NCBI GenBank assembly: GCA_903877885.1
Contig: CAIRFN010000002.1
Span: 1,734-65,733 of the forward strand
Length of the DNA stretch: 64,000 nt
Source of the DNA: an uncultured Candidatus Berkelbacteria bacterium
Lineage (GTDB): Bacteria; Patescibacteriota; UBA1384; UBA12157
Reading direction: 5' to 3'
Under the pieces are notes generated by a model. It saw nothing but the letters and a program-made list of their open reading frames with translations, searched no databases and was not told the origin of the DNA. Position 1 is the first letter of the stretch. The number at the start of each line of letters is the position of its first letter. The translations under genes were made by a program, and so were the position numbers. Of the stretch, positions 6,775 through 31,934 are shown piece after piece.

Positions 6775-7134
6775 GTATTTACACCTGGAGGAGAGGAGAA
6801 ATCTTCATCAAGTTTTATTTCTTAAAAAAACAATGATCGATGCTAAATAAAAAAATCTAATTTTTTTAGAGTTTTCTATTTCTCATTGATAACGAACTTT
6901 AACATCGCTCGAATCAGAATCGAGATATTGATTTGAGCACACAAAATATTAATAATACATTCCACCGAATAACATGTATTTAATTCAATACTTTTGTGGT
7001 TGCAAGAACTTCTTTTTAGCATTATTTAGAGGGAAAATAAAAATATGCATTAAGTCCACAATCCACGCGGGTTGTGGCACCAGACTTTTAATCGTCTAGA
7101 AGAACTCAATTTTCTACACGATTAACGGTCTCAA

Positions 7135-8590
7135 TTTTTTGAGAGTTTGATCCTGGCTCAGGACGAACGCTGGCGGCGTGCCTAACACATGCAAGTCGTA
7201 CGCTTGTAAAAGCGTGGCGAACGGGTGAGTATAAGCAAGGAACATGCCTTATTCCGGGAAATACCCAGCCGAAAGGTTGGCTAATGTCCCATAGTCTCGC
7301 AAGAGTAAAGCTCCGGCGGAATAAGATTGGCCTTGTCCCTATCAGCTAGTTGGTGAGGTAAAGGCTTACCAAGGCTTCGACGGGTAGCTGGTCTGAGAGG
7401 ATGATCAGCCACAATGGGACTGAGACACGGCCCATACACCTACGGGTGGCAGCAGTTGGGAATATTGCGCAATGGACGACAGTCTGACGCAGCGACGCCG
7501 CGTGAAGGATGAAGGTTTTCGGATCGTAAACTTCTTTTATATGGGACGATTGTGACGGTACCATATGAATAAGGGCCTGCTAACTACGTGCCAGCAGCAG
7601 CGGTAATACGTAGGGCCCGAGCGTTGTCCGGATTTATTGGGCGTAAAGAGTTCGTAGGTGGTCATTTAAGTCGGATTTTAAATTCCCAGGCTCAACTTGG
7701 GTGCTGGATTCGAAACTATTTGACTTGAGGTTATCAGGGGCAAGTGGAATTAGCGGTGTAGCAGTGAAATGCGTTGATATCGCTAAGAACACCAATGGCG
7801 AAGGCAGCTTGCTATGATCTCTCTGACACTGAGGAACGAAAGCGTGGGGAGCGAACGGGATTAGATACCCCGGTAGTCCACGCCGTAAACGATGCACACT
7901 AGGTATCAGAAGTATCGACCCTTCTTGTACCGAAGCTAACGCGTTAAGTGTGCCGCCTGGGGAGTACGGCCGCAAGGCTAAAACTCAAAGGAATTGACGG
8001 GGACTCGCACAAGCGGTGGAACATGTGGTTTAATTCGATGATACACGAAGAACCTTACCAGGGTTTGACATCTAAGGAACCCGGCAGAAACGTTGGGGTG
8101 CCCGCAAGGGAGCCTTAAGACAGGTGTTGCACGGTTGTCGTCAGCTCGTGTCGTGAGATGTGGCCTTAAGTGGTCAAACGAGCGAAACCTATATCCTGTG
8201 TTGATTTTCACGGGAGACTGCCCCGGTTTACGGGGAGGAAGGCGTAGACGACGTCAAATCAGCGTGGCTCTTACACCCTGGGCTACACACATGTTACAAT
8301 GGCAGAAACAAAGAGTTGCAAAGCCGCAAGGTTAAGCTAATCTCGTAAAATCTGCCTCAGTTCGGATTGAGGGCTGAAATTCGCCCTCATGAAGTTGGAA
8401 TCGCTAGTAACCGTGGGTCAGCTATACCACGGTGAATACGTTCTCGAGTCTTGTACACACCGCCCGTCAAGCGAGCCGAGTCGGCGGGGCCCGAAGTTCA
8501 CGGATGTGGGCGACGGCCAAGTCGGTAAGGAGCGCTAAGTCGTAACAAGGTATCCGTAGGGGAATCTGCGGATGGATCACCTCCTTTCTA
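7135..8590 (+). rRNA. rrs: 16S ribosomal RNA
   Basis: 5' end GAGAGTTTGATCCTGGCTCAG and 3' end GGATCACCTCCTTTCT. Flanking 13-bp processing stem TGTGGTTGCAAGA (7006) / TCTTGCAACCACA (8689). No introns. Confidence 0.95.
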
Positions 8591-8723
8591 GGGAGTAAAC
8601 ACCTAGGCTAGTTGTTTCAAGCAATTGCATTCAACTAGTTTAAGCGTCGATCTTACCAGACGGCCTGAATCTCAGGTTTGTCTGGCCAAGTCTTGCAACC
8701 ACAAAAGTTTTGAAACTATAAAA

Positions 8724-8746
8724 AAGACCTTTAAAGGTCTTTTTTG
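8724..8746 (+). terminator. terminator after 16S
   Basis: AAGACCTTTAAAGGTCTT followed by TTTTT, immediately after the 16S processing stem. Confidence 0.7.
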
Positions 8747-9203
8747 TGTATTTTAACCTAAATCCCACCTGCGAGGTGGGATTATATGGTTTGAATAAGG
8801 TTGGAAATTATCGTCTCAATGGACGAGGCGTTTGCCTCTGGACTTTCCAAGGATTTTTTGATAAACTGAATCAGTTGGGCGGCAAAATAGCTCCGTTTCT
8901 TATCAAGGTGCCTCCTCAAGAGTCATACTTCCCGTAAAGTCGTGGTATGACTCGGATCAAGGATGGGATAACGGGCATATGCCAGGTGCACACGGCATAT
9001 GATCGCTTTAGACCTATGTCAAAAAGCGCTAAAACCAATCTCTGCAGGGTTAAGAAGCAACCTATTTTTCTGCAGATTAAAGGGCAGTCCGTTTCAAAAG
9101 CGGCAACGAGTGATCTGGACCATTAAAGGTTCATACTCGACGGCTTAGAGGCTCCCTCCGCTCAATCTCATGATACAGCAGTATCTTCCTATTTCCATTT
9201 TCC

Positions 9204-9262
9204 CCGTACTATTGATTAGTCCGGGGTTTTTTGATAGAATTCAGATATATTATCGGGAGGTA
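9204..9262 (+). repeat. leader cassette copy A (terminator-like hairpin + T-run + conserved leader + GGAGG)
   Basis: CCCCGTACTATTGATTAGTCCGGGGTTTTTTGATAGAATTCAGATAT..TATCGGGAGG. Near-identical to 9646-9706. Confidence 0.7.
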
Positions 9263-9268
9263 ATGAAG

Positions 9269-29866: not shown

Positions 29867-30398
29867 CGAAATTCCTTGTCGGGTAAGTTCCGACCCGCAC
29901 GAATGGCATAACGGTCTGAAAACTGTCTCTGGGAAGGGCTCGGTGAAATTACAATGCCGGTAAAGATGCCGGTTACGCGCAGCAAGACGGAAAGACCCCG
30001 TGAAGCTTTACTATAGCTTGATATTGGGTCAAAATTTTAATTGTATAGTGTAGGTGGAAGCCTTCGGGCGACAATGTAACACCACCCTGTTGAAATTTTG
30101 ATTCTAACCCTCGAAAGAAGGGACAGTGTCAGGTGGGTAGTTTAACTGGGGCGGTTGACTCCTAAATTGTAACGGAGTCGTTCAAAGGTTGGCTTGTCCC
30201 GGATGGAAATCGGGATGAAAGTGCAAACGCATAAGCCAGCTTAACTGCAAGGGATACACCCCGCGCAGATGCGAAAGCAGGAGTTAGTGATCCTCTGGCA
30301 CAGTATGATGTGGCCAGAGCTCAACGGATAAAAGCTACTCCGGGGATAACAGGCTGATCGCGCCCAATAGTCCACATAGACGGCGCGGTTTGGCACCT

Positions 30399-31249
30399 TA
30401 ACACATTGGGGTGCTGTGGGAGTAATCCCATACCAAAAAATCGGCTTATAACGGTGAACCCCTATTGTTTGTTCGGGTTTTATTCATTAGAATAGAATAA
30501 AATAAACAAGGGCGATACCGTGGGAAGTCTAACGTCAATTCAGAAAGAAGTTTTGATTGGAAGTTTGTTGGGTGACGGCGCATTGCGCAAGCAAGGCACT
30601 AGAACTAACGCGCTTCTTGAAGTTAATCATTCTTTTCAATATAAAGAATATGTTGATTGGAAATGGCAACATTTCAAGGAGTATATAAAAACTCCACCAA
30701 AGCCTCGACATGGTAATGGCAATCGTATTGCTTATCGCTTTACGACTCAAAGTTTACCGTTTTTTACAGAATATTATGATAAATATTATTCAAATGGTAA
30801 AAAATTTATTGCGCCAGATATTACATTGACCCCTCTGATTTTGTCAGTTTGGTTTATGGATGATGGTTCAAAGAGTCGTAACACTTATTATCTGAATACC
30901 CAACAATTTTCGATCGAAGATCAGAATTGTTTAATGAGTATTCTTGATAGAGACTTGAAAATTAAATCAAGTTTGAACCGCGATAAAATATACTGGAGAA
31001 TTAGAATAAGAACGGAAAGTGCCGACAGATTTAAAAAAATTGTTGCACCTTACCTGTTACCATGTTTCCGTTATAAAATTGACAATGACCCCGTAACGAC
31101 TGATTCGAAAGATGAGATTTAGCTACTTGTAATTTAGCTAGATAACACGCCGCACCCTACATAAAAAAGTAAAGGATATGGCTCACGCCTAAAGTCCAAC
31201 TGTAGGGAAAAGATATAGTCTACGCCATTAGTAATAATGGATAAAAGTA
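30399..31249 (+). mobile_element. group I-like intron 2 in 23S (E. coli position about 2500)
   Basis: About 850-nt insertion between GGCACCT and CGATGTCGG. Carries a LAGLIDADG ORF. Exact boundaries are uncertain by a few nt. Confidence 0.75.
30520..31122 (+). CDS. LAGLIDADG homing endonuclease (two-motif type)
   Basis: GTG start. Motifs LIGSLLGDGAL and WFMDDGS. 200 aa. Located inside intron 2. Confidence 0.85.
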   Translation: MGSLTSIQKEVLIGSLLGDGALRKQGTRTNALLEVNHSFQYKEYVDWKWQHFKEYIKTPPKPRHGNGNRIAYRFTTQSLPFFTEYYDKYYSNGKKFIAPDITLTPLILSVWFMDDGSKSRNTYYLNTQQFSIEDQNCLMSILDRDLKIKSSLNRDKIYWRIRIRTESADRFKKIVAPYLLPCFRYKIDNDPVTTDSKDEI

Positions 31250-31783
31250 CGATGTCGGCTCACCCTATCCTGGGGGTGTAGTAGCTCCCAAGGGTTTGGC
31301 TGTTCGCCAATTAAAAGGGTACGCGAGCTGGGTTCAGAACGTCGTAAGACAGTTCGGTCCTAATCTGCTGTGCGCGTTGAAACTTGAGAGGACTTCGATT
31401 TAGTACGAGAGGACCAATCGGAACGAATCTCTGGTGTACCAGTTGTTCTACCAAGAGCATTGCTGGGTAGCTATATTCGGCCGTGATAACCGCTGAAAGC
31501 ATATAAGCGGGAAGCACACCTCAAGATCAGGTTTCGTTTAGATCCCCAGTAGACCACTGGGTTGATAGGCTCTAGGTGTAAGATGGGTAACCATTTCAGC
31601 CAAGGAGTACTAATTGATCAAGAATTTTATTCAGTTGGGCAACTACCAAGATATCTAAAATAATAATAATTCAATAATTCATAATTCAGAATGAAATAAT
31701 TAATTTTTTTATAAATCTAAATTTTATAATTCTGAATTCTGCATTAAATAATTAGTAATAAATTGTGAATTTTGTCCTGGTGT

Positions 31784-31893
31784 CAGTAGCGATCGGGCCA
31801 CACCTCTTCCCATTCCGAACAGAGTAGTTAAGCCGATCAGCCCCGATGATACTCGGTCCGCAAGGGTCCTGGAAAGTAGGACGACGCTGGGAC
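31784..31893 (+). rRNA. rrf: 5S ribosomal RNA
   Basis: GTCCTGGTGTCAGTAGCGATCGGGCCACACCTCTTCCCATTCCGAACAGAG...GGGTCCTGGAAAGTAGGACGACGCTGGGAC. An AT-rich spacer separates it from 23S. Confidence 0.9.
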
Positions 31894-31910
31894 AAAATTC
31901 AGAATAAGAA

Positions 31911-31934
31911 AAACGCCTGAAAGGGTGTTTTTTT
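31911..31934 (+). terminator. terminator after 5S
   Basis: AACGCCTGAAAGGGTGTT followed by TTTTTTT. Confidence 0.65.

Follow-up and report, generated by a model that had tools for sequence, protein, structure and literature searches.

A gene-filled 16S-23S interval in a Berkelbacteria genome: probable expansion of an ancestral ribosomal spacer, and a candidate attenuator in the 23S leader

When a bacterium's genes for 16S and 23S rRNA lie far apart on the same strand, has one of them been moved, or has the spacer between them been filled? The question is raised by a 64,000-nucleotide (nt) stretch of the uncultured Candidatus Berkelbacteria contig CAIRFN010000002.1 (the window, numbered here from its first letter), in which 18.6 kb of largely protein-coding DNA separate the 16S gene from those for 23S and 5S. 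An original prediction, made from the letters of the window alone, described these as unlinked genes with tRNA-Ile and tRNA-Ala stranded between them, and read the whole as an ancestral ribosomal operon (rrn) spacer that had been expanded and colonised. The comparisons presented below favor that reading, to which we assign a probability of about 0.85: an ancestral spacer was progressively filled, leaving three predicted transcription units that comprise the 16S gene, a mixed set of tRNA and protein genes, and the 23S-5S pair.

RNA genes were placed by Rfam at gathering thresholds and by ARAGORN. The 16S rRNA gene was located at 7135-8587 (RF00177, 1449.9 bits, full length), tRNA-Ile(GAU) at 17331-17407 and tRNA-Ala(UGC) at 18099-18173 (both by Rfam and ARAGORN), a 23S rRNA gene of 4460 nt at 27173-31632 and the 5S rRNA gene at 31776-31892 (both by Rfam). 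All five are on the + strand in the order 16S-tRNA-Ile-tRNA-Ala-23S-5S, which is the canonical rrn order, and about 18.58 kb lie between 16S and 23S. Both the separation and the position of the two tRNA genes thus agree with the coordinates first proposed. The distance exceeds the 1500-bp threshold used by Brewer et al. (10.1101/705046) to define unlinked rRNA genes, and in place of the compact spacer of a canonical operon (at most 1.5 kb, without terminator or protein genes) there are 18.6 kb and 21 genes. Rfam found one 23S and one 5S gene in the 64-kb window.

The organism is of the Candidate Phyla Radiation (CPR, or Patescibacteria), Berkelbacteria (GTDB UBA1384) type; the best named homologues of the window proteins belong to Candidatus Berkelbacteria, and the proteins encoded between 16S and 23S are typical of CPR. 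The source is metagenomic, and in short-read assemblies chimeric joins classically fall in rRNA genes, so conserved rRNA segments could have fused contigs of different organisms and produced the gap as an artefact. We give this explanation almost no credence. Three assemblies from different samples (L001, L002 and L003) match window positions 8195-29250, 13566-29250 and 8195-22618 at 99.995-100% identity, and their near-identity across the junctions at the 3' end of 16S and the 5' end of 23S makes a chimeric join very unlikely. More than 12 diverged relatives also repeat the same gene order, among them some on contigs of 392 kb and 542 kb, and base composition is uniform, the inserts having the native GC content (0.34-0.43).

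Loci of relatives (designated L and a number) were found by searches anchored on two proteins of the interval, the membrane protein orf155 (17441-17908, +) and the MS-channel-helix protein (MS-helix; 22238-22915), after which RNA genes and homologues were mapped in them. More than 12 related lineages share, on one strand, the order 16S, tRNA-Ile, orf155, orf67, tRNA-Ala, MS-helix gene, 23S, 5S, where orf67 is a small membrane protein (17887-18090, +) always paired with orf155. The module tRNA-Ile-orf155-orf67-tRNA-Ala itself was found in L020-L022, L024-L026, L099-L103, L105 and L106. A synteny comparison had been suggested as a check on the colonised-spacer reading, and its outcome, a conserved order of RNA genes with variable inserts, graded gaps, and a shared core beside lineage-specific additions, upholds it. 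The distance between 16S and 23S rises from 3.1 kb in L103 through 4.9 kb (L106), 6.9 kb (L105), 10.0 kb (L101), 11.0 kb (L026, after allowing for an insertion in its 16S) and 11.8 kb (L102) to the 18.6 kb of the window. Taken separately, tRNA-Ala and 23S are between 1.3 kb (L010) and 10.1 kb (L100) apart, and 16S and tRNA-Ile between 0.6 and 8.7 kb in the module-bearing relatives. As the 16S of the window shares 89.3% identity with that of L026 and 85.1% with that of L024, the layout spans roughly family-to-order depth. In the more distant L030 and L044 (79-80% 16S identity), tRNA-Ile and an orf155 homologue lie within 0.15-0.6 kb after 16S; no 23S was seen in the 3.4 kb that follow orf155 in L030, nor in the 6.3 kb that follow it in L045, which has the same arrangement as L044 (the L044 contig ends 0.9 kb past orf155).

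Most relatives have in common a core of inserted genes, consisting of a 123-aa protein, a Clp-like ATPase, a DUF192 protein, orf155/orf67 and the MS-helix protein. The first three are syntenic in L026, L099, L100, L102 and L105, and the MS-helix gene is found upstream of 23S in all relatives, with the remaining genes between tRNA-Ala and 23S varying. The shared core implies that the expansion is old, and the lineage-specific additions that the region is still changing. These additions include a radical-SAM/PEMT/LGT block, TerC, an S8 peptidase, a cytidylate kinase, a sigma factor, an IS200-type transposase, cyclic di-GMP (c-di-GMP) riboswitches and, in L104, a defence-like island. Local rearrangements are found as well: L024 and L103 have the tRNA module in inverted orientation, L019 and L102 tRNA-Ile alone, and in L105 tRNA-Ile directly follows 16S, with the Clp gene between it and orf155. 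To judge from these gene contents, the spacer is still a hot spot where genes are gained, lost and locally inverted.

An alternative origin is a simple relocation, in which one rearrangement carried away 16S or 23S-5S with the tRNA-Ile/tRNA-Ala pair as an unrelated locus that lies between them by chance. Movement of whole blocks does occur: the genes for an LPG-synthase-like protein, a GT4 glycosyltransferase and a PIG-L deacetylase, upstream of 23S in the window, are downstream of 5S in L010, and in L104 neither 16S nor the tRNAs are present within 10 kb upstream of 23S. These two exceptions weigh against a purely stepwise filling of the spacer, as they show that block transpositions also take place and that in-situ insertion is not the sole process. 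A further point against the favored reading concerns the predicted transcription units, whose promoters and terminators are consensus matches of a kind that scans return about as often in shuffled sequence overall. Relocation nonetheless seems to us highly unlikely, given that the five RNA genes are all in canonical order and on the canonical strand, that the tRNAs are precisely the two isoacceptors of canonical spacers, and that the gaps from 16S to tRNA-Ile are graded, from 0.15-0.6 kb (L044, L030, L105) up to 8.7 kb.

According to the favored reading, the layout would have arisen by stepwise insertion and local rearrangement inside the ancestral spacer, and not by transfer of an rRNA gene to another place. 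We infer an order of events in which the orf155/orf67 pair beside tRNA-Ile would be the oldest resident; the Clp-like ATPase, DUF192 and MS-helix genes would have been added before the family diversified, and the remaining spacer genes would have been gained and lost in each lineage. The LPG-synthase block is probably a late or mobile resident, because relatives found through the LPG-synthase-like gene (at most 62% identity) mostly have no rRNA or tRNA genes nearby.

The 21 genes of the interval, as listed by a gene caller on the identical contig L001, are fewer than the at least 25 proteins originally counted there. Four of them are on the opposite strand (10598-11059, 16843-17259, 25503-26090 and 26218-26763). 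The block inserted between 16S and tRNA-Ile (9170-17259) contains small Cys-rich ORFs (open reading frames), the 123-aa protein, which is a membrane protein, the Clp/ClpB-like AAA+ ATPase (12047-14467), a 727-aa surface protein and DUF192 (16843-17259, minus strand); the genes of the last two converge on a palindromic bidirectional terminator at 16782-16812. The block between tRNA-Ala and 23S (18195-26763) encodes an LPG_synthase_TM protein, the GT4 glycosyltransferase, the PIG-L deacetylase, a TSP3-repeat protein, the MS-helix protein, a MerR-like protein of 334 aa and three proteins of unknown function, as well as two minus-strand genes, one of them for a 181-aa membrane protein.

The two tRNA genes appear, from their spacing, to be embedded in a mixed tRNA-mRNA operon. 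A promoter-like site (TTGAAA-17-TAGAAT with a TG-extended -10; 17280-17308, +), with similar sites in L020 and L030, precedes tRNA-Ile, which is followed after 33 nt by orf155; orf155 overlaps orf67, which is followed after 8 nt by tRNA-Ala, and 21 nt further begins the first of the mutually overlapping LPG-synthase-like, GT4 and PIG-L genes. Of the claim that the tRNAs are parted from each other by protein genes and terminators, the first half stands, with orf155 and orf67 between them; as to the second, a terminator scan of the window found no terminator-like site between tRNA-Ile and tRNA-Ala. The third predicted unit would then extend from the promoter-like site through tRNA-Ile, orf155, orf67, tRNA-Ala and the LPG-synthase-like gene to GT4 and PIG-L, and its tRNAs would be excised by RNase P and 3' processing.

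The orf155 protein has a distant resemblance, below Pfam cut-offs, to the Zn-dependent phospholipase C and YdjM families; with best E values of 9e-4 and 5e-3, neither assignment was retained, and they serve as leads only. Homologues of orf155 are often linked to tRNA genes across L019-L098: a tRNA gene lies at most 250 nt upstream in 30 of 69 evaluable loci (on the same strand in 25), and is Ile-GAU, Val-CAC, Met-CAU or Leu-CAA depending on the lineage. The small-ORF cluster at 9170-11610, the Cys-rich array, has no Pfam match, and among the relatives examined its counterparts are weak and partial, in L099 and L102 only.

Several observations on the relatives may be recorded beside these gene contents. 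Matches to the c-di-GMP-I riboswitch precede a minus-strand gene in the gap from tRNA-Ala to 23S in L025 (6735-6855, minus) and L026 (13236-13324, minus), with none in the window. An IS200-type Y1 transposase is encoded between 16S and tRNA-Ile in L101 (6863-7558), and in L104 genes for a KAP NTPase, a HEPN AbiV protein, an N6/N4 methylase and a PLD nuclease (1777-8635) replace the tRNA module upstream of the MS-helix gene. In L010, a distant relative, a sigma-70 gene is located between tRNA-Ala and 23S, the 5S match spans 172 nt (5613-5784) and a tRNA match 104 nt (5927-6030), so that both may bear insertions, and the homologue of window gene 32507-33763 carries an intein/LAGLIDADG_3 insertion (7110-9503).

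Signals of separate transcription flank both rRNA genes. The 16S promoter, TTGACA-17-TATGAT (6746-6774, +; 11/12 consensus matches), and the 23S promoter, TTGACA-17-TACTAT (26807-26835, +), are exactly those of the original prediction. Downstream of the first, a boxA-like motif, ACTTTAACA, lies at 6896-6904 (+), with similar motifs in the 16S leaders of relatives, and is followed by the 5' arm of a processing stem (6984-7010, +) that pairs with 8684-8714 (+) beyond the gene. Its core of 18 perfect bp (6990-7007 with 8691-8708) is extendable to about 25 bp, so the stem that had been put at 13 bp is real and longer than stated. The terminator expected after 16S is also present, as an intrinsic-terminator-like hairpin of 14 pairs followed by a T-run (8717-8748, +). 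Before 23S, the boxA-like motif ACTTTAACA(A) is found at 27043-27051 (+), and the long processing stem anticipated there consists of about 40 bp, formed by 27139-27181 (+) with 31623-31666 (-67.9 kcal/mol against a shuffle mean of -36.6). A GC hairpin and T-run read from the sequence (aaaaacgcctgaaagggtgttttttt; about 31910-31936, +) form a terminator-like element after 5S.

These signals recur in the relatives. The 23S leaders of 14 lineages were aligned (the window, L010, L021, L022, L025, L026 and L099-L106), and in each of them a perfect TTGACA-N16-18-TAnnnT lies 190-370 nt upstream of the gene, as it does for 16S in 8 of 8; by a rough estimate, about 0.02 such matches are expected by chance per 700 nt at this composition. 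The boxA-like TTAACAA occurs in 13/14 of the 23S leaders (as CTTTAACAA or CTTAACAA), and in L022 the motif is exactly the E. coli consensus TGCTCTTTAACAA. A boxA consensus (TGCTCTTTAACAA-like) is thus present between promoter and gene for both rRNAs, with a putative role in antitermination; the count of the motif in the window, 3 found against 0.79 expected, is weak taken alone.

Polymerases modified at boxA can ignore some terminators, as in Nus-dependent rrn antitermination, and transcription from the 16S promoter might accordingly read through 20 kb into 23S-5S as one giant operon, the internal promoters acting only as boosters. We regard this as quite unlikely. A strong terminator directly follows 16S, the convergent gene pair shares a bidirectional terminator, four genes are on the opposite strand, and every 23S gene examined is preceded by a promoter with a perfect -35 and a full leader. 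Together, the promoters, boxA-like motifs, 16S terminator and opposite-strand genes make a strong argument, though a predictive one, against a single 25-kb operon. The transcript boundaries that we infer for separate 16S and 23S-5S units are therefore predictions from these signals. The 16S gene would be transcribed from its own strong sigma-70 promoter through a boxA-like leader and end at the intrinsic terminator, and 23S with 5S would be transcribed from a second, very similar promoter 18.6 kb downstream, with its own leader, boxA-like motif, stem and terminator.

A sequence context around the -35 had been reported as common to the 16S, 23S and mraZ promoters. The 10-mer GGTGTTGACA does occur at all three (6742-6751, 26803-26812 and 54192-54201; 3 occurrences against 0.04 expected), so the observation holds; its significance does not, since relatives do not preserve the GGTG that prefixes the -35 hexamer, with a near-match in L021 only, and the 10-mer was rejected as a shared regulatory context. 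The mraZ promoter region has further GGTG/GGTA/GTGGG repeats. A link between GGTGTTGACA and MraZ-binding repeats was likewise dropped, as each rRNA promoter has one GGTG unit only.

Between the 23S promoter and boxA the window carries a further module (26842-26968), composed of a Shine-Dalgarno sequence, an upstream ORF (uORF), a long hairpin, and a GC hairpin with a T-run. The uORF, encoding MGTNLNLEGVDD* (26867-26905, +), is preceded by GGAAAGG at 26853-26859. The long hairpin (26894-26948, +) includes the uORF stop in its 5' arm; a terminator-like hairpin, GTCCGCT..AGCGGAC and then TTTT (26940-26968, +), overlaps its 3' arm. Across the 14 leaders, a Shine-Dalgarno sequence, usually AAGGAG, stands 6-10 nt before an ATG in 13 (L102 has CTG instead); the uORF, which contains a G-run, is 11-13 codons long in 12 of those 13 and 22 codons in L025, with its stop codon in the 5' arm of the long hairpin. 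The GC hairpin and T-run are present in all 14, the run being T5-6 in 13/14 and four T in the window. In L025, L026, L103 and L105 the T-run and the 23S processing stem lie no more than about 25-30 nt apart, so 23S must be transcribed through the leader structure.

Partition functions were computed with the RNA free and again with its uORF region masked, as though a ribosome stood on the stop codon. With masking, the probability of the terminator stem rose from at most 0.28 to at least 0.86 in 8/14 leaders (0.20 to 0.96 in the window), from 0.28 to 0.63 in L099 and from 0.5-0.75 to 0.99 in four leaders, and was unchanged in L106. This modelled behaviour fits a ribosome-dependent attenuator. 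In such a scheme, a ribosome translating the 12-codon uORF to its stop would cover the 5' arm of the antiterminator hairpin, the downstream GC hairpin and U-tract would then form, and 23S transcription would be aborted; with free ribosomes or initiation capacity in short supply, it is the antiterminator that would form, and RNA polymerase would continue past boxA into 23S.

The same leader could also be ordinary rrn structure, with hairpins that are boxB-like stems before boxA or RNase III sites, and with short ORFs that are incidental and exert no translation-dependent control. Hairpin followed by boxA is indeed the boxB-boxA arrangement of E. coli. Several results count for this explanation: taken one leader at a time, the uORF end pairs weakly with the terminator arm, with scores that beat shuffles only modestly (z from 0 to -5, median near -1.4); RNAalifold on MAFFT alignments returned 14 weak consensus pairs with 6 sequences and none with 14; and the peptide is poorly conserved. 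A conserved uORF peptide was in fact rejected, as residues 2-8 vary freely, and because its C-terminal part overlaps a conserved RNA motif (GAGGGGG and a hairpin arm), conservation of amino acids and of RNA are inseparable there. Nor is the position of the stop inside the hairpin arm decisive, because the arm has stop triplets in all three frames. Against it stand a Shine-Dalgarno sequence kept at 6-10 nt from the ATG in 13/14 leaders despite differing spacer sequence, the narrow range of uORF length in 12/13, the GC hairpin followed by T5-6 in 13/14, and several lineages in which a further promoter would not fit between the T-run and 23S. Weighing these points, we give ordinary leader structure slightly better than even odds; that the 23S module is a translation-sensing attenuator we hold to be a tentative proposal with distinctly less than an even chance. 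A sequence-only covariance model (R1) recovered the element before 23S in all 14 lineages and nowhere else in 843 kb, its matches being its training sequences. Rfam gave no family for the 23S leader at gathering thresholds, nor at E<=0.1 from 26900 onward.

The 16S leaders of relatives carry a different module, made up of Shine-Dalgarno sequence, 5-codon uORF, hairpin of 25-30 bp containing a T-run, and boxA-like motif (L026 2844-3000; L101 about 120-270; L103 about 4960-5130; L105 about 2280-2430; L106 about 4355-4500). Their uORFs read MRYYF*, MRLIF*, MDYYF*, MRNNF* and MEVIN*, following the pattern M-R/D/E-x-x-F/N-stop, and the stop codon falls inside TTTTAACAA. In the window the module (6775-6905) is degraded and lacks the ATG, with ATC AAG TTT TAT TTC in frame instead. 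These hairpins are near-perfect duplexes that would suit RNase III, a further point for ordinary leader structure. The broader proposal that each unlinked rRNA gene of the lineage is preceded by a ribosome-sensing attenuator is, to our minds, possible but doubtful.

The rRNA genes themselves bear insertions. The 23S of the window is 4460 nt long, against 2925 positions in the model, because of insertions, among them ORFs of LAGLIDADG_1 (29296-29727, E 9e-25) and LAGLIDADG_2 (30520-31122, E 9e-42). Each adjoins one group-I-intron-like core (29639-29816 and 31023-31241), with RF00028 matches of 30.5 and 27.3 bits that fall short of the gathering score, 50. The gene has several expansions besides these two, and the 23S genes of relatives contain from none (L099) to three (L104) LAGLIDADG ORFs. 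The 16S of the window has no insertions; those of L026 (4726-5391), L024 (3258-3975), L101 (about 1858-2701) and L103 (within 5392-7573) do, encoding a 23S_rRNA_IVP-family protein in L026 (4936-5307) and LAGLIDADG_1 endonucleases in L101 and L103.

Unlinked rRNA genes in CPR, Berkelbacteria included, are already published, and the window adds an instance. Brewer et al. (2019/2020, 10.1101/705046) showed such genes to be widespread, with phylogenetic conservation, and Patescibacteria to be among the groups that have them. Of 34 circular CPR genomes, Lui, Nielsen and Arkin (2021, PMC8172020) found 27 to be unlinked; in a UBA1384 (Berkelbacteria) genome that they list, 16S is 26,291 bp from 23S, and the gap from 23S to 5S is 60 bp. 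LAGLIDADG-bearing insertions in rRNA are noted in this work as well. In the classification of Lui et al., the window belongs to type D, with rRNA genes on the same strand and opposite-strand genes between them (PMC8172020). The parts of these CPR papers available to us give distances and categories, and do not describe collinear tRNAs, orf155/orf67, a shared core or leader elements. What is new here is this detail: the collinear fossil tRNAs, the tRNA-Ile-orf155-orf67-tRNA-Ala module, the shared spacer core and the leader elements, of which the leader uORF/terminator module is the one that could surprise.

If the favored reading is right, this case shows how split rRNA genes arose in Berkelbacteria, by progressive filling of a spacer whose tRNAs were left as fossils in a mixed tRNA-mRNA operon. 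Methods based on long amplicons across 16S, the internal transcribed spacer and 23S, and binning based on rrn operons, will miss or mis-handle the clade. Were the leader module a true attenuator, it would be a direct, cis-encoded feedback control of rRNA synthesis by ribosomes, and could be how a cell with split rRNA genes balances its 16S and 23S output; if translation of the mini-ORF controls read-through, this would be a new way of tying rRNA synthesis to ribosome availability. A search of the literature library at hand found no description of leader-peptide control of rRNA genes.

Transcription of 16S apart from 23S-5S is a clade-conserved trait in Thermus, Rickettsia, Buchnera, Wolbachia, Helicobacter and Mycoplasma. 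In such classical split-rRNA genomes the genes are typically tens to hundreds of kb apart or on different strands, and the spacer tRNAs are not known to be kept collinear, unlike those of the window. The mean separation of unlinked rRNA genes is about 410 kb in Brewer et al. (10.1101/705046). Borrelia is closer to the window, with an expanded 16S-23S region in which ORFs part the two spacer tRNAs from one another and from the rRNA genes (PMC4370689). Its gap is of a few kb, with tRNA-Ala preceding an inverted tRNA-Ile and with 23S-5S in tandem (PMC4370689). The window differs in a gap of 18.6 kb with about 21 genes, in having tRNA-Ile before tRNA-Ala, and in the single copies of its rRNA genes.

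In the rrn operons of E. coli, the leader has the order boxB-boxA-boxC and a second boxA stands before 23S. The window likewise has a hairpin followed by a boxA-like motif (CTTTAACAA/CTTAACAA) before both 16S and 23S, and RNase III-type stems flank each rRNA. It differs in that the 23S boxA follows its own promoter and not a transcribed spacer, and is preceded by the uORF and the hairpin with a T-run. The 23S leader also resembles leader-peptide attenuators of the trp, his and pyrBI type in its promoter-proximal Shine-Dalgarno sequence, short ORF, alternative hairpins, and GC hairpin with U-tract. It departs from them in having no evident run of regulatory codons; its target would be an rRNA instead of an mRNA, and the availability of ribosomes would itself be the proposed signal.

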